From contig CAVHPV010000002.1 of NCBI GenBank assembly GCA_963638045.1, forward strand, positions 8-64,007: a stretch of DNA of 64,000 nt, in the 5' to 3' direction. Positions 115-44,433 of this stretch are shown here, piece by piece (position 1 is the first letter of the stretch; each line of letters opens with the position of its first letter). The position numbers and the translations under genes were made by a program. The stretch comes from Faecalibacterium sp. CAG:74. GTDB taxonomy: Bacteria > Spirochaetota > Spirochaetia > Sphaerochaetales > Sphaerochaetaceae. A model generated the notes under the pieces. The model searched no databases and was not told where the DNA came from. It worked only from the letters and a program-made list of their open reading frames with translations.

Positions 115-152
115 CGTTTATGACAATCATTTTACTGTCTGTAAGTAGATAT
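115..152. repeat. 38-bp direct repeat, copy a (partner 893-930), 5 nt downstream of the PIN/Phd cassette
   Basis: Shares CGTTTATGACAATCATT (17/17) and AGTAGATAT (9/9) with 893-930. About 31/38 identical by hand alignment, at a constant offset of 778 bp. Confidence 0.6.
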
Positions 153-156
153 GCTC

Positions 157-552
157 TCAATGCAAATAACGCTCAATGAAATCCAGGGGTAAGACGATAT
201 TCTTATCCACCGGGTAATGGATAAGATTCCCTGTAACAAGAATTGCATCACAGAAGACTGCAACCTCATAAAACCTTCTGTCTGTCTCATCTCTATTAAA
301 GGGGATATCTTTCATCGGAGTGGGCGTAACAGCTATGCCGTTTTTGATGATAGGGGCAAGAACAGCATCAATTTCGCTTTCAGTGAAATGGAATTTGGGA
401 TAATGGAGAACACGTTGATACTCTTCAAGGATCCTATAGTCATAACAGGCTGTGAACCTTCTCATAAATACAGCCTCAAGGATTTTAGCAGCATTGCGTC
501 CAGGTGACCATGCAGCAGAGAGAAGTATATTCGTGTCCAAAACGATATTCAT
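157..552 (-). CDS. PIN-domain toxin (VapC-like) of a type II toxin-antitoxin pair
   Basis: 131-aa ORF. N-terminal MNIVLDTNILL, then RDETDRRFYEVA and ILVTGN motifs typical of PIN ribonucleases. Its start lies 2 nt after the stop of the upstream antitoxin ORF. Confidence 0.75.
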   Translation of the reverse strand: MNIVLDTNILLSAAWSPGRNAAKILEAVFMRRFTACYDYRILEEYQRVLHYPKFHFTESEIDAVLAPIIKNGIAVTPTPMKDIPFNRDETDRRFYEVAVFCDAILVTGNLIHYPVDKNIVLPLDFIERYLH

Positions 553-554
553 TT

Positions 555-827
555 TCAGCTGCCTCTTGCTCCATTGATGAGAGCTTCAATTTCGTCGTCA
601 GACTTGAAGCCTTCTCTTGATGCCCTTTCTCTAATTTTGTTGAGTGCTATCATCGCTTTGGCCTGTCTTACTGCCTGGACAACTTCATCAAAGCATCCTT
701 CGGGAATATCTATCATGATAGCTGAAGGCTTACCATTATTAGTGAGAATGACTTCATCTCCGTGGGAGAGATCAGCCCACATATTTCTGCTTTCTGTTCT
801 TAAGTCACGTATTGAATAGAAATTCAT
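555..827 (-). CDS. Phd/YefM-family antitoxin
   Basis: 90-aa reading from the internal ATG at 827 (MNFYSIRDLRTESRNMWADLSHGDEVILTNNGKPSAIMIDI), the typical Phd/YefM N-terminus. The longer 151-aa ORF in the track adds a hydrophobic leader with no support. Confidence 0.7.
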   Translation of the reverse strand: MNFYSIRDLRTESRNMWADLSHGDEVILTNNGKPSAIMIDIPEGCFDEVVQAVRQAKAMIALNKIRERASREGFKSDDEIEALINGARGS

Positions 828-853
828 GTTAATCTTCTTGGTAATAATATGGT

Positions 854-865
854 ACACAATTGTGT
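854..865. promoter_or_regulatory. Perfect 12-bp palindrome ACACAATTGTGT, candidate TA operator
   Basis: Lies 27 nt upstream of the antitoxin ATG (827) in the only intergenic space that could hold the cassette promoter. Confidence 0.4.
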
Positions 866-892
866 CCATTTGGCAAATAGAAATTGACACGA

Positions 893-930
893 CGTTTATG
901 ACAATCATTCTGTTCTCTAGGAGTAGATAT
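893..930. repeat. 38-bp direct repeat, copy b (partner 115-152), upstream of the PIN/Phd cassette
   Basis: Same evidence as copy a. Together the two copies bracket the complete two-gene cassette and its putative operator. Confidence 0.6.
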
Positions 931-2364: not shown

Positions 2365-4626
2365 ATGATCACTTACAATGACGGCATATTCATCATAGAA
2401 ACAGAAAACACAAACTATATCTTCTCTGTTGAGAACACAGGCTTTCCGGAGCATATTTACTATGGACGCAAATTAAGGCTCCCCCTCTCTTCCCTGCTTG
2501 GAATGAGGGAGAAACATCTCAAGGCACCTCATATGGCAGCACGGTGCTCGAAGGAGTACAGCGAGTTCTCCCTCTCCGATACCCTTCTTGAATTCTCCAC
2601 GGAGGGAAAAGGTGACTACAGGGTTCCGCTCATAGCCGTCTCCCTCTCGGAAAAAGGAGACAGGACCCTTGAACTAAGATATGACTCCCATACAATAACA
2701 GACGGCATAGTGAGGCTGAAAGGCTTGAGGCTTCCACAGGCAATCGGCACAGAGAGCGAGGCAGAAACACTTGCAGTCACATATATCGATAAGAGTAGAA
2801 AGATAAAACTCATCACCTATTACACTTCGTTTTACAAGGCAGATGTCATAACAAGAAGGTCTGTCATAGTAAATGACTCCTCCTCCCCTATCAATGTAAG
2901 GTCTCTCCTCTCCTCTTCACTTGATTTGAGAGCAAGGGGCACCAGCATCACATCATTCTCCGGAAGATGGGGCAAAGAGAAAGGAATCAAAGAAAGAGTA
3001 ATGGATGAGGGAGAGATTGTAATCGAGTCGAGAACCATCCAGAGCGGAGAGACAGATTCCACAATAATTATAGAAAACGGGAAAGACACTTATCTATCCG
3101 GCCTTATCTACTCAGGTGCTTTCAGAACAACGGTAACGGAAAGTGCAAGCGGAATAACACACATAACAACAGGGATAAATCCCGACCTCTTCAGCTGGAA
3201 GCTGGACAGCAGTGAATACTTCGAGTCTCCTGAGGCTGTCCTTGCCTACTCGGATGGAGGAAGAAACAAGGTCGGCAATCTCATGAAGAAGTTCATCGAG
3301 AACCACGTCAGACGAGGACTCTGGAAGAACAGAATGAAGCCGATTATGCTCGATACATGGTCTTCTCTTTCATATGACCCGGACGAGAGAGATGTGCTGA
3401 AGATGGCAAAGGAAGCTGAGGAGCTCGGCTTCGAGGGGATTGTCGTATCGGACGGCTGGTTCGGGGCAAGAAGGAATAACTCATCTTCTCTTGGAGACTG
3501 GTATGCTGATACCAAGCACTTTCCTTCCGGCATCAAGAGTCTCTCTAATGAGATACACTATATGGGGCTTCTCTTCGGACTGTGGTTCGAGATGGAGGGA
3601 ATAAGCGAGCGTAGCATGCTCTATAAGTCCCATCCCGATTGGATAGTAGGAAGAAGTGCAGAAGAAAGCGTGAAGGCTAACAATGAGCTGCTTCTGGACT
3701 TATCACGCGAGGATGTGCAGGAGTGGGTAATCGACACAATGACGAAGATAATCGACTCCTATAAGCTTGATTACATCCGCTGGAGTCTATCACGCTTCCA
3801 GGGTGACCTCTGGTCAAACAGCGGAGAGAGAGACAGCTCGGAATTCATGCACCGCTATCTCGCAGGGCTCTATCATATCCTCGATGCAATAACAAAGACT
3901 TACCCGAACATATATATAGAGGGAACCAGTGCGGGAGGCATGAGGTTCGACATGGGCATGCTCTCTTATATGCCGAGCATCGTCACAAGCGAGAATCCCG
4001 ATTCTCTCGGAAAACTCAAGATAACAGAGGGAACAGGGATGATTTATCCCCTTTCCGTTATGACAAACATCATTACCAAGACGGGGCTCTATCCAGCACG
4101 GAAGATAGACGAGGAGACACAGTTCAATGCCTTTTCATTCGGAGTTCTGGATTATTCCATTAATCCGATGGAACTTTCGGCCCGTGACAAGATAAGGCTT
4201 GTGCAACAGCTCGATTTTTACAAAGGCTACAGACCTCTCTTCCAATACGGCACATTCACTCTTCAGGAAGAGAATGAGGAACGCACTCTCTGGACAGTCT
4301 CCAATGGAGACAGCTCTACAGTAATCATGCTCTACTACCTCAAGAAGGCAGAAATCAACACAAGTGCGGAGAAGCTCTATGTGGAGTGTGCCAACGAAAA
4401 CTATGACTACTCCTTCATAGCACGCACCCACATACAAAGTGAAGTCGAGGATGAACTTCATCCACAGGAGATGGAGTGCTACAACAGTGCAGGTGATGTC
4501 CTGAAGTGGGCAGGCCTCACCCTTGTCGAGAATTCAAGCGGTAACGGCTGGGAAGACGGGATGAGGGCACTCAGGGACAACACTTCACGCCTTTACATAA
4601 TAAAGAAAACAGAGGAAAGAAAGTGA
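2365..4626 (+). CDS. Alpha-galactosidase, glycoside hydrolase family 36
   Basis: 753 aa. KLDYIRWSL (nucleophile region, K-x-D-x-x-x-W) and EGTSAGGMRFDMG (GGxRFD acid/base region). The size and N-terminal beta-sandwich pattern are typical of AgaA/RafA-type GH36 enzymes. Confidence 0.8.
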   Translation: MITYNDGIFIIETENTNYIFSVENTGFPEHIYYGRKLRLPLSSLLGMREKHLKAPHMAARCSKEYSEFSLSDTLLEFSTEGKGDYRVPLIAVSLSEKGDRTLELRYDSHTITDGIVRLKGLRLPQAIGTESEAETLAVTYIDKSRKIKLITYYTSFYKADVITRRSVIVNDSSSPINVRSLLSSSLDLRARGTSITSFSGRWGKEKGIKERVMDEGEIVIESRTIQSGETDSTIIIENGKDTYLSGLIYSGAFRTTVTESASGITHITTGINPDLFSWKLDSSEYFESPEAVLAYSDGGRNKVGNLMKKFIENHVRRGLWKNRMKPIMLDTWSSLSYDPDERDVLKMAKEAEELGFEGIVVSDGWFGARRNNSSSLGDWYADTKHFPSGIKSLSNEIHYMGLLFGLWFEMEGISERSMLYKSHPDWIVGRSAEESVKANNELLLDLSREDVQEWVIDTMTKIIDSYKLDYIRWSLSRFQGDLWSNSGERDSSEFMHRYLAGLYHILDAITKTYPNIYIEGTSAGGMRFDMGMLSYMPSIVTSENPDSLGKLKITEGTGMIYPLSVMTNIITKTGLYPARKIDEETQFNAFSFGVLDYSINPMELSARDKIRLVQQLDFYKGYRPLFQYGTFTLQEENEERTLWTVSNGDSSTVIMLYYLKKAEINTSAEKLYVECANENYDYSFIARTHIQSEVEDELHPQEMECYNSAGDVLKWAGLTLVENSSGNGWEDGMRALRDNTSRLYIIKKTEERK

Positions 4627-5576
4627 ATAAAATAGTAGTAGCAGGAGGAGGTGTATTCGGTACTTCAATAGCAGAGCGCCTCACCTGGAACAGAAATAAC
4701 AACGTAACGATCCACACTATCGAAGAGGACGTTGCTGATGATATAAACAGAAACCACCAGAATACAAAGTATTTTCCAACGAAGTTTCTCTCACCCTCTC
4801 TCAAGGCCACCATGGATGACAGCATCTTCTGCGATGCCGATGTCGTCATGCTCGTCCTTCCCTCCAAAGCCATCGTCCCCTTCTCAAAGAGAATAAAGAC
4901 AGACAAAAATCCCTTGATAGTGAACCTTGCCAAAGGAATGAGCGACGAAGGGGCATTCATCACAGAAGATATTCCCTTTCTCCGCAAAGCCAGTATGAAG
5001 GGACCATCGTTTGCAATCGAGACAATGAACGGTTTCCCGACATCCTTCACCTTCGGAGGAAGGAGGGAGGACTATGAATACTTTAAAGAGAATATTCTTC
5101 CCCATACAGGATTCACGCTTGACTGGACAGAAGATACAAGAAGTGTTGAACTATGCTCCATTCTCAAGAATATGTATGCAATAGCGATAGGACTTGTGTC
5201 AGGAAAGTACGGATCTCCTAATGTGGACTTTCTTGTCTACACAAAGGCAGTAAAGGAAATGAGGGAGCTTTTGAGGCTTTACTCATGCTCGGAGGATACG
5301 ATCTTCTGCTATTGCGGACTGGGGGACCTGGGACTAACCGCCCTCAATGACCTATCACGCAACAGGACATTCGGTATGCTACTCGGAAAGGGATTCCTCT
5401 TCAACGAAGAGAAGAATGCCGCCACAGTAATAGAGGGAAAGAGAACGATAAAACTCGTAAAGAAGTTCATCACAGAGAAGGGAAGAGAAGAAGACTTCCC
5501 GCTTGTGAACAATCTCTACTCCCTTCTCTATGAGAACGGCAGAATCAACGACTACTACGTATCGGTATTGAGTTAA
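4623..5576 (+). CDS. NAD(P)H-dependent glycerol-3-phosphate dehydrogenase family protein (GpsA-like paralogue)
   Basis: Rossmann motif VVAGGGVFGTSIA at the N-terminus. GLGDLGLTALNDLSRNRTFGMLLGKG matches the GpsA signature GLGDLxLTCxSxxSRNRxxG. Overlaps the upstream stop by 4 nt. Confidence 0.7.
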   Translation: MNKIVVAGGGVFGTSIAERLTWNRNNNVTIHTIEEDVADDINRNHQNTKYFPTKFLSPSLKATMDDSIFCDADVVMLVLPSKAIVPFSKRIKTDKNPLIVNLAKGMSDEGAFITEDIPFLRKASMKGPSFAIETMNGFPTSFTFGGRREDYEYFKENILPHTGFTLDWTEDTRSVELCSILKNMYAIAIGLVSGKYGSPNVDFLVYTKAVKEMRELLRLYSCSEDTIFCYCGLGDLGLTALNDLSRNRTFGMLLGKGFLFNEEKNAATVIEGKRTIKLVKKFITEKGREEDFPLVNNLYSLLYENGRINDYYVSVLS

Positions 5577-7016: not shown

Positions 7017-7038
7017 GCCGGCATGATGCAATGCCGGC
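7017..7038 (-). terminator. Hairpin downstream of the truncated lipoprotein copy
   Basis: GCCGGCAT-gatgca-ATGCCGGC, an 8-bp stem 8 nt after the stop at 7046. The U-run on the minus strand is weak. The repeat boundary (7029) falls in the loop. Confidence 0.4.
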
Positions 7039-8547
7039 ATCATTCTTACAGGGTCTCGAAGAATGACAAGGTACCATCCCCAAGGATTCTGAATCCACCA
7101 GCTGTCAACTGGATCGCTTCGTTGTCACTAATTTGCCAACCTGTGTTTTCAGCAAATGAATAGCTAACCCCTCTACTTGTGGTGTACCCATTATAATCCA
7201 GGTCCAGAATAACTCCCTTTTTCACAACAAAGGAGTCAGTTTCAACACTAGTTTTATTCACCCAGTATTTTATTTCAGCCACGACACTTCCAGTCTCGCT
7301 CTTTGTAATTCCTTCGACTGTGGTCGACGAGGTGTCCGTTTGTATACCAATAAGAGCTTTTTCAGCACTGAGGAGAACGGCTTTGTAGCTGGCAACAGCA
7401 GTTTCATCCAGTGTAGCCGAGCCGGAAGCAGAAGCAGCCTTGATTGCATCTGCGATACTTGTCCCAGGGGTAGCTTCGCTATTTACTGTCAGGAGGGTTT
7501 TTATTGCAGATCTTGCTCCCGAGCCATCAGCCTTCCCCATTTTCTTCAAGATTTCATCCGCAGCCTTCAGAGTATCAGCAACCTTCTGCATCACAGCTGC
7601 AGCGTTTGTGCCTGTCGTTGCTGTAGTAAATTTGTTCGTGCTTCCACCATACTTCCACGCAGTCTTAGCAGCCTCCAGAGCATCGTCTGCGGTAGTCATT
7701 GCGACCGGATCGCTTGACTTATTCACAGTCACTTCGCAATAGTTTTTGGCATAATATCCGCATTTTGTGCATGTAGCTTTCTGCTCGTCTGTTCTTCCGG
7801 TTGTGGTATCGTAGATATGAGCAACAGGATAGTATTCTAGTCCACACACATCACAGCATACATAGTGGTCTGTCCCGTCCATCAGGTTGTTACTCATGAA
7901 AGACATCAGTTTAAAATTAGAATCATTTCCAACAAATGTCGATCTGTCATTTTCAGCACTGCTCGTGCCATAAAGGTGATTGTGATTCTCGATGAAGACA
8001 ATTTTGCAGGTTTTGGATTCAGCAGCTGTATATGCATTACTGCTATTATCCGAACTCACAACCCAAGCTCCAGTTGAATCTTTTGAGAGATAAATTCCAC
8101 TGCTTAGCTTCAATGCACGTTCTTTTGTATCTTTGCAATCAAAGCGATCTACAAATTCTGCAGTCGCAACACTGCTAGCCTCTGTCGTTGTCCACCCTTT
8201 CCCGTCAGCACAAGAAGATTCAATCTTTTTCACGGTCAGACCATCCGCATTCTCTACAATATCTCCATAAGTAATATTGGTAATATTTCCGTTAGAATCC
8301 AATGTATAGCCGACTAAGGTTCCAACCATATATTTATAAGTTGGAGCAGCTGTTCCACTTGTTTCCACAGGCTTATTCAAATACCCAAGAGACTCAAGGC
8401 AAGATGCACAATATGCTTCGTAACTTACAGGTGTAAATTCTGTTGCAGCAACGGTTTTATCCTTTTCATAATGAGCATCATCTTCGCTTATCCCACCTGC
8501 AACATTTATTTTTCCGTCGGCAGTAAGATAATTTACATATGCACCAT
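7029..8547. repeat. 1,519-bp direct repeat, left copy (partner 10519-12037)
   Basis: Identical to 10519-12037 at offset 3490. Hand-compared lines match, and the translations of four ORFs on both strands are identical between the copies. Confidence 0.95.
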
Positions 8548-8575
8548 CGTTAAATATACACGGATGCTGCTGAAC
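7046..8575 (-). pseudogene. 5'-truncated duplicate of the 621-aa surface lipoprotein gene
   Basis: The C-terminal 444+ codons are identical to 10536-12401, but the signal peptide and lipobox are missing. The frame runs upstream out of the repeat and closes at TAG 8576-8578. No ATG with an SD; only an internal TTG at 8380. Confidence 0.8.
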
Positions 8576-8635
8576 CTATTATTTCTTCAAAGTCCTACAG
8601 CATCTGTATACTTCAAAAGTCAACCATTTAGCTGT

Positions 8636-10348
8636 TTAAGGATGAGGCCACACTGTGCAGATATACCCGACCATCTCATCACACCGCCTCAATATTGATG
8701 TCTCATTCCATGCATCAAAGCCACCAAGACTTTGGCTAATGCGGATAGGAGTATAGCGGTAGCCATAGTTGAAACCGTCCGGGGCATTACCTCTCCAGTC
8801 TCTCTTGAATCCGAAGCGATAATCTCCCATACGGGCATTCTCTCCTCTTGGAAGAATAGTCAGATTTCCCAATGTATGCTGGAATCTATCATGAATAACC
8901 TGTGCTTCTGCTCCCAGGTCAAGTTCCCAATTATAGTCATCAATGTTCTGAACATTCTCCTTTGGAAAAGCAGCCGTATGCATAGTTTCAGGAAGAATAT
9001 GCTCGATAGTTGGGTCTACTAAGGAGAATGCAGGATTAAGAGATTTCTCAATTCTCTCAAGGTAGTAGTATGCGCTCATTAAGCTATAGAAGTCACCATA
9101 ATGCAGATAGTTCAATATTTCATTATCATCAGGCATTCTTTGTTTGCCAGGAAGGTTATTGATGCACTCGATAAAGTCATTCAGGCTGTCAGAATGAGAT
9201 AGGAACATTATCATGGCAGTACCCAATGAATTCGTCGGAACACGGAGAATATCTCTCCTCACTATATAAGACTCGAGGTACCTCAGGATGGCAATTGTGT
9301 CATCAACTAAGACAGTGTGTTTGTCCCACTGATTCAATATCTTAAGAATCAACGGAATAAATATGTCTTTTCCAGTGTAGGAAATATACTTTAGGAGAGT
9401 TGCAATGTCTCTATTTCTAAATGAGTTATTAAGATATTTTGCATAGAGTTTAGCATACTGATGTATCTCAGCAAGAATACTCTCGATGCCTTCAACACTA
9501 CCGGAACTCATAATGAATGTCTTCTTGAAAACGCAGTAGTATTCTTTCTGATCAAGAAGAGTACAGGCTTTAAGTCTTGTAAAATAAAAGAGAAAATCAT
9601 CCATTTTATCAAGAATAAGATCCTCAACAGGTTTCCAATACTGAATGTAGAGCCGATTTTGGTCTCTACTTGTAAGTCCCATAAAAATCCAATTACGCAC
9701 CAGATCGACTTTATTTAAATCAACACCAGTGTCATTTACAGCTTCAAACAGAAGCTGAGGATTCTCATTTGCCTCCAAGGTCACAAGTGCAAGTTGTGCC
9801 TTACTTATACCATCAAAGATAATTGTCGGATTATATTTTTTATCGACCAGACTCTTAAGGAAGAAGTTATAGTTTTCGGACATCTTCCCGTCTCCAATTA
9901 CCCCATGCAGAAGGCTTATATATTCATTCCTGTCTGTACCTTCTTTCGGAAGTAACTTTGTAAACAAGCTTGTGTTTATTAATGCATCATTTACAAGGTA
10001 AATTTTCTTTATATTACCAAGAATTGCTGATGTAGTGTCAGGCACAGTCTGAACAGGATAATCACTCCAGTATCTCTCCAAAGCAAGCAGGAGAAGTGTA
10101 ATCGTTGTGGTTCTCTGCTGTCCATCTATTACATTGTAGACATTTACAACTCCTGCAGCCTGTTCCTCTTTCAAAATGATTGACCCGACATAATGATTAG
10201 CATTCCCGGGAGTCCCGGCCTTGATAATATCCTCCAATAACTTCTCGCAATTCTCTTTCCCCCAGGCATAATTCCTTTGGTAGATAGGAATCTGGTACTG
10301 CTTGATTCCTGACAAAAGCGAAAAGAAGTCGCTCGGTGTAATTCTCAT
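8636..10348 (-). CDS. GmrSD-like type IV restriction endonuclease candidate (DUF262 N-terminal + DUF1524 His-Me/HNH C-terminal domain)
   Basis: 570 aa. QIPIYQRNYAWGKENCEKLLEDI and VIDGQQRTTT (DUF262 / ParB-like DGQQR motif). C-terminal IEHILPE ... HTLGNLTILPRGENARMGD (DUF1524). Strong SD AAGGAGG upstream of the ATG at 10348. Confidence 0.8.
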   Translation of the reverse strand: MRITPSDFFSLLSGIKQYQIPIYQRNYAWGKENCEKLLEDIIKAGTPGNANHYVGSIILKEEQAAGVVNVYNVIDGQQRTTTITLLLLALERYWSDYPVQTVPDTTSAILGNIKKIYLVNDALINTSLFTKLLPKEGTDRNEYISLLHGVIGDGKMSENYNFFLKSLVDKKYNPTIIFDGISKAQLALVTLEANENPQLLFEAVNDTGVDLNKVDLVRNWIFMGLTSRDQNRLYIQYWKPVEDLILDKMDDFLFYFTRLKACTLLDQKEYYCVFKKTFIMSSGSVEGIESILAEIHQYAKLYAKYLNNSFRNRDIATLLKYISYTGKDIFIPLILKILNQWDKHTVLVDDTIAILRYLESYIVRRDILRVPTNSLGTAMIMFLSHSDSLNDFIECINNLPGKQRMPDDNEILNYLHYGDFYSLMSAYYYLERIEKSLNPAFSLVDPTIEHILPETMHTAAFPKENVQNIDDYNWELDLGAEAQVIHDRFQHTLGNLTILPRGENARMGDYRFGFKRDWRGNAPDGFNYGYRYTPIRISQSLGGFDAWNETSILRRCDEMVGYICTVWPHP

Positions 10349-10506
10349 AATATTTCTCCTCCTTCAAAGCTTCTTATCTAAAGCAACCAAAATAAAAAGT
10401 TCCCCCTAAACAAAAAGCTATAACCAGAAGGGGAACCGTCAGGTTATAGCAATAAAGTAAAAATGGAATATTAATTTTATTTCCATTAAATACAATGTTT
10501 AAATCA

Positions 10507-10527
10507 CCGGCATTCAAACAATGCCGG
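10507..10527 (-). terminator. Hairpin downstream of the intact lipoprotein gene
   Basis: CCGGCAT-tcaaaca-ATGCCGG, 9 nt after the stop at 10536. The right arm lies inside the repeat. The left arm lies outside it but is still complementary. Confidence 0.4.
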
Positions 10528-12037
10528 CATCATTCTTACAGGGTCTCGAAGAATGACAAGGTACCATCCCCAAGGATTCTGAATCCACCAGCTGTCAACT
10601 GGATCGCTTCGTTGTCACTAATTTGCCAACCTGTGTTTTCAGCAAATGAATAGCTAACCCCTCTACTTGTGGTGTACCCATTATAATCCAGGTCCAGAAT
10701 AACTCCCTTTTTCACAACAAAGGAGTCAGTTTCAACACTAGTTTTATTCACCCAGTATTTTATTTCAGCCACGACACTTCCAGTCTCGCTCTTTGTAATT
10801 CCTTCGACTGTGGTCGACGAGGTGTCCGTTTGTATACCAATAAGAGCTTTTTCAGCACTGAGGAGAACGGCTTTGTAGCTGGCAACAGCAGTTTCATCCA
10901 GTGTAGCCGAGCCGGAAGCAGAAGCAGCCTTGATTGCATCTGCGATACTTGTCCCAGGGGTAGCTTCGCTATTTACTGTCAGGAGGGTTTTTATTGCAGA
11001 TCTTGCTCCCGAGCCATCAGCCTTCCCCATTTTCTTCAAGATTTCATCCGCAGCCTTCAGAGTATCAGCAACCTTCTGCATCACAGCTGCAGCGTTTGTG
11101 CCTGTCGTTGCTGTAGTAAATTTGTTCGTGCTTCCACCATACTTCCACGCAGTCTTAGCAGCCTCCAGAGCATCGTCTGCGGTAGTCATTGCGACCGGAT
11201 CGCTTGACTTATTCACAGTCACTTCGCAATAGTTTTTGGCATAATATCCGCATTTTGTGCATGTAGCTTTCTGCTCGTCTGTTCTTCCGGTTGTGGTATC
11301 GTAGATATGAGCAACAGGATAGTATTCTAGTCCACACACATCACAGCATACATAGTGGTCTGTCCCGTCCATCAGGTTGTTACTCATGAAAGACATCAGT
11401 TTAAAATTAGAATCATTTCCAACAAATGTCGATCTGTCATTTTCAGCACTGCTCGTGCCATAAAGGTGATTGTGATTCTCGATGAAGACAATTTTGCAGG
11501 TTTTGGATTCAGCAGCTGTATATGCATTACTGCTATTATCCGAACTCACAACCCAAGCTCCAGTTGAATCTTTTGAGAGATAAATTCCACTGCTTAGCTT
11601 CAATGCACGTTCTTTTGTATCTTTGCAATCAAAGCGATCTACAAATTCTGCAGTCGCAACACTGCTAGCCTCTGTCGTTGTCCACCCTTTCCCGTCAGCA
11701 CAAGAAGATTCAATCTTTTTCACGGTCAGACCATCCGCATTCTCTACAATATCTCCATAAGTAATATTGGTAATATTTCCGTTAGAATCCAATGTATAGC
11801 CGACTAAGGTTCCAACCATATATTTATAAGTTGGAGCAGCTGTTCCACTTGTTTCCACAGGCTTATTCAAATACCCAAGAGACTCAAGGCAAGATGCACA
11901 ATATGCTTCGTAACTTACAGGTGTAAATTCTGTTGCAGCAACGGTTTTATCCTTTTCATAATGAGCATCATCTTCGCTTATCCCACCTGCAACATTTATT
12001 TTTCCGTCGGCAGTAAGATAATTTACATATGCACCAT
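10519..12037. repeat. 1,519-bp direct repeat, right copy (partner 7029-8547)
   Basis: See the left copy. This copy lies entirely within the intact lipoprotein gene and its terminator arm. Confidence 0.95.
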
Positions 12038-12401
12038 TTTTTAAAACTGCATGCGGGACTTTCATTCCAGCTTCAGCAGCTTCCTTTGGAGTAACGATCT
12101 CCTGGAATTCTGCACCACACACCTGACAACGATATGTATAGATACCGTCCTGAACACAATTCAAAGGCTGTTCTTCTTTTTTAACGGCATTTTTAGCATG
12201 ACTATGACCAAGAGCGGCAACAGTCTCTGTCTTAGTTTCTCCACATGTGGTACATGTGAATGTTATCTCACCAGTCGTTGTACATGATGGTGCCAAGGTC
12301 TGTTTTCCTTCATCCCACGTATGCTTGTGGTTTTCAGGTGAACATGCCACGGCAACAAACACCAAGACAACCAACATTACGATTGATAATGTTTTCTTCA
12401 T
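10536..12401 (-). CDS. Surface lipoprotein with N-terminal His/Cys (zinc-ribbon-like) modules
   Basis: 621 aa. Signal peptide MKKTLSIVMLVVLVFVAVAC with a lipobox Cys. The mature N-terminus carries HKHTW...CTTCGE and GHSH...CQVCGA modules. Confidence 0.8.
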   Translation of the reverse strand: MKKTLSIVMLVVLVFVAVACSPENHKHTWDEGKQTLAPSCTTTGEITFTCTTCGETKTETVAALGHSHAKNAVKKEEQPLNCVQDGIYTYRCQVCGAEFQEIVTPKEAAEAGMKVPHAVLKNGAYVNYLTADGKINVAGGISEDDAHYEKDKTVAATEFTPVSYEAYCASCLESLGYLNKPVETSGTAAPTYKYMVGTLVGYTLDSNGNITNITYGDIVENADGLTVKKIESSCADGKGWTTTEASSVATAEFVDRFDCKDTKERALKLSSGIYLSKDSTGAWVVSSDNSSNAYTAAESKTCKIVFIENHNHLYGTSSAENDRSTFVGNDSNFKLMSFMSNNLMDGTDHYVCCDVCGLEYYPVAHIYDTTTGRTDEQKATCTKCGYYAKNYCEVTVNKSSDPVAMTTADDALEAAKTAWKYGGSTNKFTTATTGTNAAAVMQKVADTLKAADEILKKMGKADGSGARSAIKTLLTVNSEATPGTSIADAIKAASASGSATLDETAVASYKAVLLSAEKALIGIQTDTSSTTVEGITKSETGSVVAEIKYWVNKTSVETDSFVVKKGVILDLDYNGYTTSRGVSYSFAENTGWQISDNEAIQLTAGGFRILGDGTLSFFETL

Positions 12402-16405: not shown

Positions 16406-18577
16406 ATGGCCCAGAAGAAAATCAATTTCATGTGTACAGCCTTCAGAGACGGCTTCCAGTCCGTCTACGGTGCGAGGGTATTCACAAAAGACTTCATGCC
16501 GGCTGTTGCCGCAGCCAAGGAAGCAGGCATCAGACACTTCGAAGCAGGTGGCGGTGCAAGATTCCAGGCTCTCTACTTCTATACAAATGAAGATGCTTTC
16601 GCAATGATGGACGAATTCAGAAAGGTTGCAGGACCTGATGCCAACCTCCAGACTCTCGCACGCGGTGTCAACATCGTAGGTCTTGATTCCCAGCCGAGAG
16701 ATATGATCAAGCTCCATGCTCAGCTTTTCAAGAAGCACGGCATGACAACCATCCGTAACTTCGATGCACTCAATGATGTCAACAACCTCATCGACAGCGG
16801 TAATGCCATCCATGATGCCGGCCTCAAGCATGAGATCACAGTCACTATGATGAGTCTTCCGGAAGGCGTCAACGGCGCACACAACCCTGACTTCTATGAA
16901 AGGATCCTCAAGGAAATCCTTGCTGCAAAGATTCCTTTCGATTCTCTCTGTTTCAAGGATGCTTCAGGCACATCAACACCTCACAATGTTTATGAGACAA
17001 TCAAGAGAGCACGCAAGCTCGTCGGTCCGAACATGAACATCGTCTTCCATTCACATGAGACAGCAGGTGTTTCCATCCAGCAATACATGGCAGCTATCGA
17101 GGCAGGGGCAAACCAGCTCGACCTCTCCATGTCTCCTGTATCAGGCGGAACATGCCAGCCCGATATCATAACAATGTGGCACGCTCTCAGAGGAACTGAC
17201 TACACACTCGATATCGATATCGAGAAGGTCAGAAAGGCTGAAAGCGTATTCGAGGAATGCATGGCTGACTACTTCCTTCCTCCTGAGGCAACAAAGGTCA
17301 ACCCTGAAATTCCGTTCTTCCCGCTCCCGGGTGGCGCTCTCACTGCAAACACACAGATGCTCAGGGACAACAACCTCATGGACAAGTATCCGCAGATTGT
17401 CGCTGCAATGGGCGAGACAGTCGCAAAGGGCGGCTTCGGTACTTCCGTCACCCCTGTAAGCCAGTTCTACTTCCAGCAGGCATTCAACAACGTAATGTTC
17501 GGGCCGTGGAAGAAGTTTGCTGAAGGCTACGGAAAGATGGTTCTCGGCTACTTCGGAAAGACTCCTGTCGCTCCGGACCCGGAAGTTGTAAAGCTTGCTT
17601 CCGAGCAGCTCCACCTCGAGCCTACAACTGAGAAGGTTGTAGATATCAACGACAGAGACCCCAAGAAGGGTGTTGCTGCAGCAAAGGCTATGCTCGAGAA
17701 GGAAAACCTTCCTCTCACAGACGAAAACATCTTCATCGCTGGTGCATGTAAGGAAAAGGGTATCCTCTACCTCACAGGTAAGGCACATGTTAATGGTGTC
17801 AGACTCAAGAGCGAGATGGCTAAGGAAGAAGAGGCTAAGAAGGCTCAGGCTCCAGCTAGCAAGAAGAGCGCAAACGGCGAATACACAGTCACAGTCGGCG
17901 GCACAGCTTACGGCGTAAAGATCAGTGGCAACAAGGCTGTTGTAAACGGCAAGGAATATCCTTTGAATGTTGTTGACGGAATCAAGGCTCCAACAGCTGC
18001 AGTAAAGTCTGAGGCTAAGGAAGTCAAGAAGGTTGTCAAGACAACAGGAAGCACAGAAGTTGTTGCACCAATGCCGGGACTCGCACTGAGGTTCGAAGTC
18101 AAGGTCGGTGACACTGTCAAGAAGGACCAGGTTCTCTGTGTCATGGAAGCTATGAAGATGGAGAACGAAATCTACTCTCCATGTGACGGCGTTGTCTCAT
18201 CAATCACTGCTAACCAGGGCGACCAGCTCCAGGCAGGCGACCTCTTGATGACAATCGGAGGCTCTGTTGAAGAAGTAGTCGAAGAAGTCGTTGAGGAAGT
18301 TGTTGAAGAGCCAGTGGCTGCACCAGTTGAAGAGACAAAGGAAGAAGTTGCAGTTTCTGGAGAAGGAACAGAGGTTCTCGCACCTATGCCGGGTCTGGCA
18401 CTCAGATTCGAGGTTAAGGTCGGAGATAAGGTTGAGAAGGACCAGGTTCTCTGTGTCATGGAAGCTATGAAGATGGAAAATGAAATCTATTCTCCTGTTG
18501 CAGGCACAGTCGCATCAATCAATGTTAACCAGGGCGATCAGCTTCAGGCTGGTGACCTTTTGATGGTTATCGCATAA
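16406..18577 (+). CDS. oadA: Oxaloacetate decarboxylase alpha subunit (carboxyltransferase) with two C-terminal biotinyl domains
   Basis: 723 aa. N-terminal TIM-barrel carboxyltransferase region (FRDGFQS, HSHETAG). Two copies of [15 protein letters not shown]...[15 protein letters not shown] separated by an (EEVV)x3 linker. Confidence 0.85.
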
Positions 18578-38111: not shown

Positions 38112-40538
38112 ATGAGTATCAAGATTGCACTTGCCGGCAACCCGAATGCGGGCAAGACCACACTTTTCAATGCACTTACAGGTTCCAACCAGTTCGTCGG
38201 CAACTGGCCTGGAGTAACAGTCGAGAAGAAGGAAGGTAAACTCAAGAAGAACACAGATGTCATCGTGACGGACCTTCCCGGTATTTATTCACTTTCACCA
38301 TATACACTGGAAGAAGTTGTTGCAAGGGACTATTTGAAGAACGAGAATCCTTCAGTCATCCTCAATATTGTCGATGCAACAAACCTCGAACGTAACCTCT
38401 ATCTTACAACACAGCTCATCGAGCTCGGCATCCCGATGGTTGTCGCACTCAACATGATTGATGTTGTCAGGAAGAACGGGGACAAGATTAACACAAAGGA
38501 GCTTGAGAGACAGCTCGGTGTTCCTGTTGTCGAGATTTCCGCCCTCAAGGGGGACGGCGTCGAGGAAGTCACAGAGAAATGCCTCAAAGCTGCAAACGGT
38601 GCCCATCCGGTTCCCCCACACATCTATTCAGGTGCAACCGAGCACACCCTTGCACATATCGAGGAGGCGGCCCTGCATAGTCTTCCAGAGTCGGAGCAGA
38701 GATGGTATGCCATCAAGATCTTCGAGAGGGATAAAAAAGCTTATGAAAAGCTCAATATAAACCCGGCAACTCTCAACCATATTGAAAATGACATCAAAGA
38801 AGCAGAGAAGGAAATGGATGATGATGCAGAGTCAATCATCACAAACGAAAGATACATCTTCATCGCAGGGGTCATCAAAGCTTGCTACACAAAGAAGAAG
38901 ACAGGCCTCTCCACTTCTGATAAGATTGATAAGGTTGTAACAAACCGTTTCCTTGCACTTCCTATTTTTGCAATCATCATGTGGCTTGTTTACTATATCT
39001 CTGTAACTACAGTTGGAAGCTGGGCTACTGACTGGGCCAATGATGGTGTATTCGGAGATGGATGGCATCTCTTCGGTATCGGATCTGAAGCATACAGCGA
39101 AGCTTCAGATACCTACACCGGTGCAGATGAGGTACTTTCCGCATTTGCAGAGGAGAAGGGTATTGAGTTTGATGAGTATTCACCTGAAGTTGTCGCTTCC
39201 ATCGTAAGTGCCGCAAAGCCTTCAGACACTGTCAAATACACAATTGAAGACGAAGAAACACTTGCAGAAGAAGAAGAAACAGCAACATACGAAGACCTTA
39301 CAGAGAGTGCAAAGGCTATGGCAAGCGTTGACTATGCAGAGCCTGATCCTGCTGACTATGGTGTATGGGTACCCGGTGTTCCTGTTCTCCTTGAAAACCT
39401 TCTCGACAGGATCGGCTGTGCTGACTGGCTTAAGGGTCTGATCCTTGACGGCATTGTGGCTGGTGTCGGTGCCGTTCTGGGGTTTGTACCGCAGATTTTC
39501 GTCCTCTTCATCTTCCTTGCATTCCTGGAAGGTTGTGGCTATATGGCTAGAATTGCATTCGTCATGGACAGAATCTTCCGTAAGTTCGGTCTCTCCGGTA
39601 AGTCATTCATCCCAATTCTTATCGGAACAGGATGCGGTATACCGGGCATCATGGCTTCGCGTACCATCGAGAACGAGAAGGACAGAAGGATGACGATCAT
39701 GACAACTACCTTCATCCCATGCGGGGCAAAGCTTCCTTTCATCGCTATGATAGCCGGAGCTGTCTTCGGTGGGGCCAGCTGGGTTGCACCGAGTGCATAC
39801 TTCCTTGGTATGTTTGCCATAATCTCAAGCGGTATTATCCTTAAAAAGACAAGACTCTTTGAGGGTGACCCGGCTCCGTTTGTTATGGAGCTCCCTGCTT
39901 ACCATCTTCCAACAGTTGGCTCGATTCTCCGTTCAATGTGGGAGAGAGGCTGGTCATTCATCAAAAAGGCCGGGACTATTATCACACTTTCAACTATCTT
40001 CATCTGGTTCACAACATACTTCGGCTTCACTGCTGAAGGGTTCAGGATGCTAGCTGAGGATGAGATTGAGTATTCTATCCTGGCCAAGATCGGAAGTGTC
40101 TTTGCATGGCTCTTCGCTCCTCTCGGATGGGGTAATTGGCAGGCTGCTGTAGCTTCGATCACAGGCCTTGTCGCTAAAGAGAACATCGTCGGAACACTTG
40201 GCATCCTCTACGGGGCATCCGGAAATGCATATGCCGGGATCAGCGCGGCATTTACATCCGTCACAGGTTTCTCATTCCTGGCATTCAACCTCCTCTGTGC
40301 TCCATGTTTTGCAGCAATGGGTGCAATAAAGAGGGAAATGAACTCTCCGAAGTGGACCTGGGCAGCAATCGGCTGGGAATGTGGTTTTGCTTATCTTGTG
40401 GCATTTGTTGTGACACAGGTCGGCAATATGTTTACAGGAAAGGGAAACGTGTTTATGTTCATCCTTGCACTCCTCGTGATCGCACTTTATATTTATGAGC
40501 TCTTCTTCAAGAAGACCTCAAAGAAAGTTGAAGCATGA
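38112..40538 (+). CDS. feoB: Ferrous iron transporter FeoB
   Basis: 808 aa. G-domain GNPNAGKTTLFNALTG, DLPG. Polytopic C-terminal permease. Confidence 0.95.
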   Translation: MSIKIALAGNPNAGKTTLFNALTGSNQFVGNWPGVTVEKKEGKLKKNTDVIVTDLPGIYSLSPYTLEEVVARDYLKNENPSVILNIVDATNLERNLYLTTQLIELGIPMVVALNMIDVVRKNGDKINTKELERQLGVPVVEISALKGDGVEEVTEKCLKAANGAHPVPPHIYSGATEHTLAHIEEAALHSLPESEQRWYAIKIFERDKKAYEKLNINPATLNHIENDIKEAEKEMDDDAESIITNERYIFIAGVIKACYTKKKTGLSTSDKIDKVVTNRFLALPIFAIIMWLVYYISVTTVGSWATDWANDGVFGDGWHLFGIGSEAYSEASDTYTGADEVLSAFAEEKGIEFDEYSPEVVASIVSAAKPSDTVKYTIEDEETLAEEEETATYEDLTESAKAMASVDYAEPDPADYGVWVPGVPVLLENLLDRIGCADWLKGLILDGIVAGVGAVLGFVPQIFVLFIFLAFLEGCGYMARIAFVMDRIFRKFGLSGKSFIPILIGTGCGIPGIMASRTIENEKDRRMTIMTTTFIPCGAKLPFIAMIAGAVFGGASWVAPSAYFLGMFAIISSGIILKKTRLFEGDPAPFVMELPAYHLPTVGSILRSMWERGWSFIKKAGTIITLSTIFIWFTTYFGFTAEGFRMLAEDEIEYSILAKIGSVFAWLFAPLGWGNWQAAVASITGLVAKENIVGTLGILYGASGNAYAGISAAFTSVTGFSFLAFNLLCAPCFAAMGAIKREMNSPKWTWAAIGWECGFAYLVAFVVTQVGNMFTGKGNVFMFILALLVIALYIYELFFKKTSKKVEA

Positions 40539-42052: not shown

Positions 42053-42127
42053 GAAAAAAATCTCAAACTAGGTCATTATCTGACCTAGTACACTCTCTAT
42101 ACTGGTTCTGTCATAAGGAGACAAAAG

Positions 42128-42448
42128 ATGACTTATTCAGAGACAAGAGAGATGTACACATCCTTCTATGCGGAGAGCAGAAGGGAAAGAGAGAAAAGAA
42201 CCGGATTGCTGTTAAACGCTTTTAAACTCCTTTATTCATGTTTTCTGCCATGGCTTATAACTTCACTATGCATTGTGAGAGTACATAACCTCCACAATGC
42301 AAAGGGCTTTCTTCTTTCTTTCGTTATACTCGGCCTTTCCCTTCCCTTCTACTCAAGTGCATCCAATAGTGACAGGACATACTTCCTCTCCTGTACCATC
42401 CTTTCATACCTTATTGCACTTTCATCAGTCCTCACTGTTCTTATGTAG
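42128..42448 (+). CDS. Small hydrophobic membrane protein (106 aa), copy 1
   Basis: SD AAGGAG 7 nt upstream, about 3 TM segments, followed by a terminator hairpin. Duplicated identically at 44070-44390. Confidence 0.5.
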   Translation: MTYSETREMYTSFYAESRREREKRTGLLLNAFKLLYSCFLPWLITSLCIVRVHNLHNAKGFLLSFVILGLSLPFYSSASNSDRTYFLSCTILSYLIALSSVLTVLM

Positions 42449-42469
42449 GACTCACCCAACACCCCTTAT

Positions 42470-42491
42470 GCCGGGCTCATAACCCGGCTTT
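42470..42491 (+). terminator. Hairpin terminator at the end of repeat copy 1
   Basis: GCCGGG-ctcataa-CCCGGC followed by TTT. It overlaps the last codons and the stop of the minus-strand antitoxin gene. Confidence 0.5.
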
Positions 42492-43487
42492 ATTATGCAC
42501 CGTTGAGTAAAGATCACTCGAGTAGAGAAAAATATCATCCGGGGTTTTCATCCCGTATTTTTCCTTTATAGCTAGAAAGAAATCACCTATTGCTTTTCTG
42601 TCTATCACCTTATCTGAATGAGAATCTTCTTCTGTCTCGCCTCTAGTCTCAATCCAGGGAGTCTCACTGTGGGTGAAGGCTTCAAGTATCTTTCCGCTGT
42701 AGCAGCATATATTATTGATGACACTGTCTATCACAGCCTTCTCTTCTCTGGAGAATACGGGAAGAGGAGATTTGGAGTTATCAGAAATTGGATTGAAATG
42801 ATAATCTGCATACTTCTTATAGACATTGCGGTAGACAGGGCCGTGTGCCCAAGCTTCACAGTCCTCTTCGAAAATGAACTTTGAATAGAATGCATAGAAA
42901 AATCCCTGGATGTAATAAAGCGCTTTCTGAAGTGCCAGTGGAGTTATATCCTCACATCTGTCGATAAGATAGACAATCACAGAAGAGATCGCCTCGCTGC
43001 ATTCTACCTCATTACTCCCAAGCAAAACCTCTGCCGCCATCCGGCTCTTAGCATAGCTTTTCTTTGAGATTTTTTCTCTCCCGGCCTCCAGCAGATTAAG
43101 ATAATATCCCGGGTCCTCATAGAGATTTTCCAGGGTCTGAGAGTATTGCCTTGTCGGGATATCACCATCAAGATAACGCTCAAGCGTATGTTCACCCCAC
43201 CCAAGAAGCACGGAGAGAGGCCTCTTACCGATCTTATATCTTTCAGGGAGAGTACGGACTTTCTCCAGCGATATTATTCCATTTTCGCTTCTATATTTAT
43301 CATAGAGTGCCGTCAGGTTACACTCCCCGATCTCCCAGACATCGAGATTTCCCCCGCATTCTGCGCACCTTACCTCTTTTCCTTTATATTTGTAGACAGT
43401 GCCGCGTATTGTCCCTGTCATCTCCTTCTCTTCAATTATATAATCGACATCCTTCCTGCAATTGACACAGAAAACCTTGTCAGTCAT
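42477..43487 (-). CDS. Fusion antitoxin: MqsA-like zinc ribbon + HTH fused to a Panacea (DUF4065/SocA-like) domain
   Basis: CVNCRK...CAECGG zinc ribbon, an HTH-like region (ISLEKVRTLPERYKIGKRPLSVLLGWGEHTLERYLDG), then ITPLALQKALYYIQGFFYAFYSKFIFEEDCEAWAHGPVYRNVYKKY, typical of DUF4065. Start at MTDKVF, overlapping the toxin stop by 8 nt. Confidence 0.65.
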   Translation of the reverse strand: MTDKVFCVNCRKDVDYIIEEKEMTGTIRGTVYKYKGKEVRCAECGGNLDVWEIGECNLTALYDKYRSENGIISLEKVRTLPERYKIGKRPLSVLLGWGEHTLERYLDGDIPTRQYSQTLENLYEDPGYYLNLLEAGREKISKKSYAKSRMAAEVLLGSNEVECSEAISSVIVYLIDRCEDITPLALQKALYYIQGFFYAFYSKFIFEEDCEAWAHGPVYRNVYKKYADYHFNPISDNSKSPLPVFSREEKAVIDSVINNICCYSGKILEAFTHSETPWIETRGETEEDSHSDKVIDRKAIGDFFLAIKEKYGMKTPDDIFLYSSDLYSTVHNKAGL

Positions 43488-43926
43488 GCTTTTTCTCCTT
43501 TCTAAACAGATATTCAACGGGTCTATTTAATTTATGTAGTGAAATCACAACGGTCCAGTCGCCATCCTCTCTCTTGATCAAATTGAACTTTGTATAAACA
43601 TCGACGCTTTCTTTTTCTCCAACAGCATTATAGAGGACAACACGGGGAACAAATACATAAAGAACTTCGTCCTCATATCCTTTCTTCATATTCCTGAGAG
43701 TGTGGCAGAAATCATCAACGGTGATTTCCAAGAGGAGCCTCTTCCTCTTTTTATGATAAAGATTGTACTCATTTATGAAAGATATATTCTCCTGTCTGTT
43801 CTCGTTCATTGAAACCTGGAATCTGTCATTTTCCACGCACTCCTTAATTCTGGACAGCACAGCGTCTATCTCGCTCTTTGTGTAATCCCTCTTATAATAC
43901 TGATTCGACATACCCCTCCCCAACAT
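43480..43926 (-). CDS. MqsR-like (RelE/YoeB-superfamily) toxin candidate
   Basis: 148 aa (143 aa if it starts at 43911). Hand alignment to E. coli MqsR: LEITVDDFCHTL versus GLSESDFYKSM, VDVYTKFNL...VVISLHK versus QVYLKITV...LIVSFKEK. Toxin-first order as in mqsRA. Confidence 0.5.
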   Translation of the reverse strand: MLGRGMSNQYYKRDYTKSEIDAVLSRIKECVENDRFQVSMNENRQENISFINEYNLYHKKRKRLLLEITVDDFCHTLRNMKKGYEDEVLYVFVPRVVLYNAVGEKESVDVYTKFNLIKREDGDWTVVISLHKLNRPVEYLFRKEKKHD

Positions 43927-43929
43927 CCT

Positions 43930-43949
43930 TATTGTCTATAGAGACAATA
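43930..43949. promoter_or_regulatory. 8-4-8 inverted repeat TATTGTCT-atag-AGACAATA, candidate TA operator
   Basis: Lies immediately upstream of the toxin start codon. The minus strand has TTGACA just upstream of it. Confidence 0.45.
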
Positions 43950-44008
43950 GAAAATGTCAATATATGTACTAATTGGTACATAATGAGGAAAATTTAAAAA
44001 TTTCCTTG

Positions 44009-44433
44009 ACTAGGTCATTATCTGACCTAGTGCACTCTCTATACTGGTTCTGTCATAAGGAGACAAAAGATGACTTATTCAGAGACAAGAGAGATGTACA
44101 CATCCTTCTATGCGGAGAGCAGAAGGGAAAGAGAGAAAAGAACCGGATTGCTGTTAAACGCTTTTAAACTCCTTTATTCATGTTTTCTGCCATGGCTTAT
44201 AACTTCACTATGCATTGTGAGAGTACATAACCTCCACAATGCAAAGGGCTTTCTTCTTTCTTTCGTTATACTCGGCCTTTCCCTTCCCTTCTACTCAAGT
44301 GCATCCAATAGTGACAGGACATACTTCCTCTCCTGTACCATCCTTTCATACCTTATTGCACTTTCATCAGTCCTCACTGTTCTTATGTAGGACTCACCCA
44401 ACACCCCTTATGCCGGGCTCATAACCCGGCTTT
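44009..44433. repeat. 425-bp direct repeat, right copy (partner 42067-42491)
   Basis: See the left copy. Confidence 0.95.
44070..44390 (+). CDS. Small hydrophobic membrane protein (106 aa), copy 2
   Basis: Identical translation to 42128-42448. This copy has an intact TTGAC upstream and a longer T-run after its terminator. Confidence 0.5.
   Translation: MTYSETREMYTSFYAESRREREKRTGLLLNAFKLLYSCFLPWLITSLCIVRVHNLHNAKGFLLSFVILGLSLPFYSSASNSDRTYFLSCTILSYLIALSSVLTVLM

Follow-up and report, generated by a model that had tools for sequence, protein, structure and literature searches.

In the 64,000-nucleotide stretch of DNA analysed here (the window; from contig CAVHPV010000002.1 of assembly GCA_963638045.1), two almost identical copies of a 425-bp segment flank a 1,517-bp cassette for a predicted toxin-antitoxin (TA) pair of the PanA type. 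This repeat-cassette-repeat layout at 42067-44433, denoted A-B-A below (repeat copies A1 and A2, cassette B), is a duplication-insertion in the chromosome of a gut spirochaete, and the arrangement is old and inherited. As to its origin, we favour, with modest confidence, an old homology-anchored insertion, which would have duplicated a segment of the recipient and would then have been inherited vertically under gene conversion and addiction.

Comparing the copies base by base at an offset of 1,942, we found that A1 (42067-42491, forward strand) and A2 (44009-44433, forward strand) agree at 424 of 425 positions, a match beyond chance. The sole mismatch is A at 42090 versus G at 44032, and the identity ends sharply on both sides of the repeat. 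Each copy contains, in this order, a palindrome, a TATACT box, the Shine-Dalgarno sequence AAGGAG, an open reading frame (ORF) for a 106-aa membrane protein and a hairpin. The palindrome (ACTAGGTCA-TTATC-TGACCTAGT; 9+5+9) occupies 42067-42089 and 44009-44031, upstream of the TATACT -10 box. The small gene, which encodes three hydrophobic segments and has AAGGAG 7 nt before its ATG, lies at 42128-42448 (copy 1) and 44070-44390 (copy 2), and the terminator hairpin GCCGGG-ctcataa-CCCGGC-TTT at 42470-42488 and 44412-44430, genes and terminators all being on the forward strand. Cassette B (42492-44008, reverse strand) consists only of a promoter/operator, a toxin gene and an antitoxin gene, with a palindrome of its own at 43963-43982. 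The initial annotation of this stretch had described the repeats with their one substitution, the content of each copy and the two-gene insert on the opposite strand, and all of these descriptions were borne out.

For comparison with related loci, one genome per species was scanned with the aminopeptidase, which led to metagenome-assembled genomes (MAGs) of gut spirochaetes, and the twelve closest species were used. Leftward, A1 is continuous with the native metK spacer, and alignment showed that its left flank matches the metK-small gene spacer found in L002, the closest relative. Rightward, A2 is continuous with the native upstream region of pepA. It turned out that both outer flanks (metK-A1 and A2-pepA) align continuously to the relatives, and that B has no counterpart at this locus in 10 related species. 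The GC content of B is 41.3%, versus 45.5% for the window.

Both novel joints can still be read. At the joint between A1 and B, the last four codons of the antitoxin gene (K-A-G-L) and its stop are encoded inside A1 (42477-42491), as had been noted before, and the stop codon falls in the loop of the terminator hairpin on the other strand. Because homologous antitoxins are about 6 residues shorter, their last residue being aligned with ...STV, the native stop was evidently removed at this joint and HNKAGL was added; we take the joint to be illegitimate. At the other joint, the right end of B carries a stub of about 25 nt (43984-44008, forward strand) resembling a diverged form of the spacer from metK to the palindrome, which all relatives have, and this joint appears to keep about 25 nt of diverged native spacer. 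When five relatives were compared with A2 by blastn, the alignments started at 43989-43990 and so took in roughly the final 20 nt of B. In two other carriers of the cassette, L086 and L087, the stub reads TGAAAATATTTGAAAAGTTACTTA and resembles the spacer from the metK stop to the palindrome of L008-L010.

The age of the structure is given by its recurrence. A second MAG, GCA_963609625.1, which was found through the cassette protein, has the same A-B-A and is 99.35% identical to the window across 21 kb. Between the two strains (32478-53488 of the window versus L082), there are 137 differences which are strongly clustered (15 in 39478-39977, zero in several 500-bp bins), as would be typical of recombination patches. 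The 90% cluster of the cassette protein contains four further variants on short Logan contigs, and an exact scan of JGI metagenomes for the A1-B junction gave no match. The cassette is 94.5% identical to the window in L087 and 88.9% identical in L086 (Logan SRR19415656), and in both, the joints of A1 with B and of B with A2 are exactly as in the window. Since identical junctions are found in lineages whose cassettes differ by 5.5% and 11% (antitoxin synonymous divergence, dS, of 0.19-0.28), the A-B-A has long been inherited and is old, and it is not a recent acquisition. In L086 (1-1674), the toxin gene has several frameshifts and stops, the antitoxin is intact, and the small-gene copy adjoining the cassette (copy 1) has suffered a 2-nt and a roughly 212-nt deletion, with about 214 nt lost; in this lineage, both the toxin gene and copy 1 have become pseudogenes. 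As copy 1 carries deletions of its own, the two copies of L086 are physically distinct. Copy 1 must have evolved on a replicating molecule, and as there is no replication gene in the 1.5-kb insert, this molecule can sensibly only be the chromosome.

The likeness of the two copies is informative as well. Eight sites of A (offsets 157-340) distinguish the two strains, and at each of them the base is common to both copies within a strain. The A/G difference at offset 24 is copy-specific in both strains; as copy 2 of the other lineages carries A at this offset, the G is a young mutation. The divergence between A1 and A2 is 0.24%, versus the several per cent expected without homogenisation for a structure which predates the 5-11% divergence of the cassette. 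Gene conversion would explain this near-identity if it stops some 25 nt short of where the homology ends. It had also been expected that the cassette would be lost easily by RecA-mediated recombination. This was not what we saw: the structure persists, its copies are kept alike here, and in L086 copy 1 and the toxin gene decay in place.

We then summarized the native locus of the small gene. As far as the contigs extend, the twelve closest species all have FeoB, MetK, small gene, PepA and GlnA-III in this order, and in 10 of the twelve the small gene was detected, as a single copy between metK and pepA. L004 represents the compact empty site (metK, small gene, pepA). A natural tandem duplication of the small gene without a cassette was looked for and found in none of 12 or more related genomes. 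Several relatives contain other inserts: AlbA_2-like genes lie between metK and the small gene in L005 and L013, and the interval between the small gene and pepA holds a nucleotidyltransferase/HEPN pair with an AlbA_2-like gene in L009, a nucleotidyltransferase gene in L002, L084 and L085, and a rubrerythrin-like gene in L008 and L010. Both flanks of the small gene are spots of accessory-gene turnover. The AlbA_2-like insert of L013 is flanked by 53-nt direct repeats (3035-3087 and 4592-4644, 87% identical), which are ACTTCACTAC units with an internal inverted repeat, and a related motif is found in L005 (7882-7927) between two AlbA_2-like genes. The labels of the scanned MAGs are mostly Sphaerochaetaceae, Spirochaetales or Treponema. 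Among L002-L013, several labels are implausible (Comamonas kerstersii, Muribaculaceae, Segatella copri, Ruminococcus), as synteny and identity place these loci in one spirochaete clade; the labels of the closest bins are unreliable.

The 106-aa protein was assigned to no family by Pfam and NCBIfam searches, belongs to a tiny family (4 clusters), and had no match in an exact-protein look-up. Its palindrome and -10 box precede the small gene in 10 related species, insert-free ones included, and the palindrome arms vary in pairs across species (T/A to A/T). Judging by this conservation and by the paired arm changes, the palindrome belongs to the control region of the gene; it is probably the operator/promoter element of the small gene and, overlapping the -35 position, probably the binding site for a regulator of the small membrane protein. 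On the same grounds (paired changes, conservation upstream of the small gene in insert-free species), we rejected the palindrome as a recombination site. Moreover, the inserts of L005 and L013 are upstream of the spacer and not at the palindrome.

The two cassette genes are on the reverse strand with the toxin gene upstream. The putative toxin gene (43480-43911; 143 aa, or 148 aa from the ATG at 43926) overlaps the start of the antitoxin gene by 8 nt. The antitoxin (42477-43487; 336 aa from ATG, or 346 aa from the TTG at 43517) combines an MqsA-like zinc-ribbon/helix-turn-helix (HTH) N-terminus with a Panacea (SocA) domain. The latter (also DUF4065) was matched by PF13274 at residues 196-288 with E 1.9e-19 (71.1 bits, cut-off 25.7). 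The N-terminus scored 38.9 bits against TIGR03830, which is under the cut-off of 61.8, and PF15731 is recorded for only some of the homologues. The promoter is sigma-70-like (TTGACA-18 nt-GACAAT, 43960-43931, reverse strand), and the 20-nt palindrome TATGTACTAA/TTGGTACATA just upstream of it (43963-43982) is likely the autoregulatory operator of the TA pair. Judging by domain content, gene order and operon structure, the cassette is a putative PanA-type toxin-antitoxin pair.

For the putative toxin, no Pfam or NCBIfam family was found, and a Foldseek comparison of its model (predicted local distance difference test score, pLDDT, 83) with the Protein Data Bank (PDB) gave no match with E < 0.01 (best E 0.019), the weak top matches being NTF2-like folds. 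Its 501 homologues are all unnamed. MqsR and RelE were considered as identities of the toxin and rejected, since there is no likeness in sequence or fold. With its family of about 500 unannotated members, its confident model and no fold match, the 143-aa protein is a candidate for a new PanA-partnered toxin. Exact-protein look-ups of the 148-aa toxin and the 346-aa (TTG start) antitoxin gave no match, and the antitoxin read from its ATG did. The same toxin/antitoxin pairing is present in L001, L082, L087 and L110, and the TA relatives on predicted viral contigs are only about 50% identical. Both genes are under purifying selection, with ratios of nonsynonymous to synonymous divergence (dN/dS) of 0.13-0.17 for the antitoxin and 0.06 for the toxin. 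These ratios and the toxin-first decay in L086 would be compatible with a working addiction module.

The window contains two further inserts of like layout, at 7029-12037 and 115-930; both had been pointed out in the initial annotation, and both are real according to the repeat comparisons. In the former, the repeats (7029-8547 and 10519-12037, reverse strand) are 1,519 bp long and 100% identical. The first is a truncated duplicate with the 3' 1,502 bp of a gene for a 621-aa lipoprotein-like product plus 17 bp, and the second is part of the intact gene (10536-12401). Between them, a 1,971-bp insert (8548-10518, reverse strand) carries a GmrSD-family type IV restriction gene (8636-10348; PF03235, PF07510). 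The insert joins the truncated copy at an arbitrary point inside the gene. Its right end, on the side of the intact copy, reads CACCGGCAT versus CAGCCGGCAT, the alignment extends 30 nt at about 65% identity, and this end appears to carry the distal terminator arm of the lipoprotein gene in diverged form. The anatomy is the same as in the TA case, which would fit the same way of formation. One Logan contig consists of the GmrSD insert plus 30 nt per side, no viral relatives of GmrSD were found, and a SIMPL neighbour look-up for this case matched only the same sample. The third case (115-930, reverse strand) is a PIN toxin (157-552) with a Phd/YefM-like antitoxin (555-812) between 38-nt direct repeats (115-152 and 893-930), which are 82% identical and have an exact 17-mer in common.

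Outside the window, such layouts are rare. We compared 37 homologous TA loci of other metagenomes whose contigs offered sufficient flanking sequence, and direct repeats bracket 1 of the 37. This is L110 (224-1946; JGI Ga0123356_10205099), from an unrelated metagenome, in which a 45%-identical toxin/Panacea-antitoxin pair lies between 67-bp direct repeats (224-290 and 1880-1946, 94-97% identical) that include the terminator hairpin of an upstream Uma2-like gene; events of this kind thus occur elsewhere too. In 1.15 Mb of related spirochaete loci, we found no further kb-size insert bracketed by direct repeats of at least 100 bp, and two long plus one short repeat-bracketed cassettes in 64 kb are a mild, unexplained excess. 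A different kind of repeat is located at 18046-18572 (212 nt, direct, 81% identical, spacing 315), inside a 723-aa ORF (16406-18577); here a segment of the protein is repeated, which has nothing to do with the cassettes.

How could the A-B-A have formed? We suggest that a foreign fragment with the compact TA operon entered the metK-small gene-pepA locus in an ancestor of the species, and that it came from a diverged donor in which the cassette lay beside a homologous small gene. The end of the fragment homologous to the spacer and the small gene would have crossed over at the first well-conserved stretch, the operator palindrome, and the other end, broken at the antitoxin stop codon, would have been joined illegitimately just past the terminator of the small gene. 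An illegitimate joint downstream of the crossover implies an "ends-in" topology, which might be reached via a circularised fragment, the sister chromatid or a broken fork, and the recipient's own segment (425 bp, originally about 450 bp) would thereby come to lie on both sides of the cassette. A crossover with such a joint would explain why the copies start out identical, why the identity breaks off sharply beside a diverged stub at just one of the joints, and why the other joint is arbitrary. Afterwards, the arrangement would have been inherited vertically with the TA genes under purifying selection. Loss between the repeats is presumably counter-selected, since the antitoxin gene would go with it, and addiction would then be the reason why a cassette between 425-bp direct repeats was not lost. 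Gene conversion would keep the copies alike, the outermost 25 nt or so of the homology excepted, and once the toxin is dead, copy 1 may decay too. The order of events, the ends-in topology, the stabilising role of addiction and the homogenising role of gene conversion are what we infer from the sequences. An unequal crossover between two strains, one with the cassette before the small gene and one with the cassette after it, was rejected as a general model, because the repeat of the GmrSD case is an internal gene fragment.

Several points weigh against this account. When the stubs were aligned, locally and globally, with the native spacer or terminator within the window, the observed score was reached in 52-84 of 1,000 shuffles, and the sequences are A/T-rich; as these scores are only marginal and the similarity is not statistically significant, the stub argument rests on the alignments to relatives. 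A donor with the cassette next to a homologous small gene was not found, the nearest other homologues being at most 65% identical, and neither natural competence nor another route of DNA entry is known for the organism. No conspecific genome free of the cassette was present among the genomes compared, which bears on loss and addiction. Collapse of assembler bubbles could add to the shared single-nucleotide polymorphisms (SNPs) ascribed to gene conversion, but it cannot hide a divergence of several per cent between A1 and A2. The long assemblies are short-read SPAdes MAGs only. At both ends of both inserts, the Logan contigs of SRR13434599 break off after exactly 30 nt (k-1) of repeat, and the assembly graph alone cannot separate X-A-B-A-Y from X-A-Y plus a circle of A and B.

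The last point could be taken further, to an assembly artefact: the chromosome would read metK-A-pepA, and the assembler would have threaded a loop (a circle of A and B, or a strain mixture) once. The contig breaks at both inserts agree with this, and SPAdes does traverse simple loops to resolve them. Nevertheless, the structure recurs in four independent samples or lineages, one SNP is copy-specific in two strains, and the deletions and the toxin pseudogene of L086 need long independent evolution, for which a 1.5-kb insert without a replication gene is no vehicle; an artefact is highly improbable and the least credible explanation we considered. Insertion of a circle by one reciprocal crossover inside A, as in the Campbell model put forward in the initial annotation, deserves more attention. 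The circle would have carried the cassette and a full small-gene segment from a conspecific or near-identical donor; in one variant it was excised from another A-B-A, and the cassette spreads between strains as a RecA-dependent translocatable circle. This gives the exact layout with both copies joined to native flanks, the 425- and 1,519-bp repeats are efficient RecA substrates, and the layout is recurrent in the window. However, if the donor was diverged, one donor-derived copy should differ, and the copies are identical at 424/425 and 1,519/1,519 positions; if the donor was conspecific, a stub equal to the resident spacer would be expected, which is not what we see. Besides, the joint which removed the antitoxin stop codon still requires an illegitimate step, and identical junctions across dS 0.19-0.28 point to one old event and not to repeated re-insertion. 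A simple Campbell insertion yields the same map but fits less well than a crossover with an illegitimate joint, and we consider it unlikely. The earlier interpretation was therefore right in outline, as a homology-driven insertion best fits the junctions, and wrong on timing and instability; a plain Campbell circle from a diverged donor would leave a donor-type A.

The duplication might also have come first. The spacer and the small gene would have been tandemly duplicated, the cassette would have landed between them, and the edges of the blocks would have diverged as the interior was homogenised. The site past the terminator of the small gene does hold inserts in several relatives, and the stub before A2 resembles a second spacer copy. 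Yet the cassette-free tandem, as said above, is missing from the related genomes, the 1,519-bp case would call for this two-step coincidence a second time, and a truncated duplicate has no evident selective value, which makes this order of events decidedly unlikely. An undescribed element that duplicates long targets had been proposed earlier as well, that is, a dedicated element or a recombinase acting in trans which would insert defence or TA cassettes at hairpin or palindrome sites. What speaks for it are the three direct-repeat-bracketed cassettes in 64 kb against none of the long kind in the 1.15 Mb of related loci, the homologous TA pair of L110 between repeats with a terminator hairpin, and the repeat ends which meet a palindrome or terminator in the TA case, the GmrSD case and L110. 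Against it, ORFs and domain searches revealed no recombinase or transposase in or adjoining the inserts, which carry only TA or GmrSD genes. No terminal inverted repeats pair the ends of 42492-44008, the three inserts have no common end sequences, a fixed staggered cut could not give repeats of 38, 67, 425 and 1,519 bp, and one boundary is at an arbitrary mid-gene position. In addition, 36 of the 37 homologous TA loci lack flanking repeats, and the palindrome is conserved in insert-free species. We regard such an element as very improbable. A recurrent route which is specific to the lineage and independent of a recombinase is a speculative and rather unlikely possibility: small defence and TA cassettes with a short homing arm of conserved host DNA would enter by one-ended homologous insertion that duplicates the anchor, later loop out and re-enter as RecA-dependent mini-circles and, in the TA case, stabilise themselves by addiction against deletion between the repeats. 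If true, the excess in the window relative to the 1.15 Mb of related loci would reflect a propensity of the lineage and not chance.

Defence and TA genes are mostly found in hotspots without visible mobility genes, and their route of arrival is seldom documented. With both novel joints still readable and the anchor duplicated, the A-B-A offers a plausible record of an acquisition event. The evolutionary series shows that a recombinationally unstable-looking structure persists and that its copies homogenise, and that one lineage has lost its toxin and eroded one repeat, which allows testing whether a TA module guards its own repeat-flanked locus against deletion.

Long direct repeats allow the segment between them to be excised as a circle that retains one repeat, and such a circle can re-enter by recombination, as in the amplifiable or translocatable units of IS26. 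Here, by contrast, the repeats are a host gene, there is no transposase, and no sign of amplification or movement is seen. Generally, the inserts differ from transposons and insertion sequences (IS) in having no transposase, no terminal inverted repeats and no fixed short target duplication. In the literature, the general mechanisms were found and this specific layout was not reported. Homology-facilitated illegitimate recombination (HFIR) is described, according to the citations in PMC5361080, in Acinetobacter, Pseudomonas stutzeri and S. pneumoniae. When cells are transformed, interchromatid integration yields merodiploids (PMC3784515). With HFIR and Campbell-type insertion, our case shares one junction that is arbitrary and foreign DNA trapped beside a conserved anchor, and its other junction may be homologous to the target. 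As in HFIR and interchromatid integration, pairing across two positions or chromatids would duplicate the target, and as in insertion-duplication, the duplicated segment is host DNA, single-copy at the locus in relatives, and the insert is foreign. The differences are that the described HFIR events mostly delete or replace recipient DNA and do not duplicate the anchor, that the pneumococcal merodiploids span 100-900 kb between IS copies (PMC3784515), and that the process is deduced here from sequence, in an organism without a known DNA uptake route.

Displacement arrays at the effector-immunity loci of the type VI secretion system and at Rhs loci (Kirchberger et al. 2017, PMC5361080) are similar in that modules enter by a conserved upstream anchor, homologous on one side and illegitimate on the other, recurrently at hotspots. 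They push the old module downstream as an orphan, whereas here the anchor is duplicated and its copies are kept alike. As for the cassette itself, MqsR/MqsA likewise has toxin-first order, an antitoxin with a CxxC...CxxC zinc ribbon and an HTH, and a palindromic operator at the promoter, but the TIGR03830 score is below its cut-off, the toxin is not MqsR/RelE-like, and the antitoxin has an added Panacea domain. The closest likeness is to PanAT, TA systems with antitoxins that contain the Panacea/DUF4065 domain (Kurata et al. 2022, PMC8832971), where toxin-upstream order was noted for PanA proteins with the accessory domain PAD1 (PMC8832971). Like them, the cassette is a two-gene operon of overlapping genes, toxin upstream, with a Panacea domain fused to an N-terminal domain of DNA-binding type and homologues on predicted phage contigs; unlike them, it has a putative partner toxin for which neither a described family nor a solved fold could be matched. 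In conclusion, the A-B-A is a new example of known processes, with an evolutionary series and an unstudied toxin.

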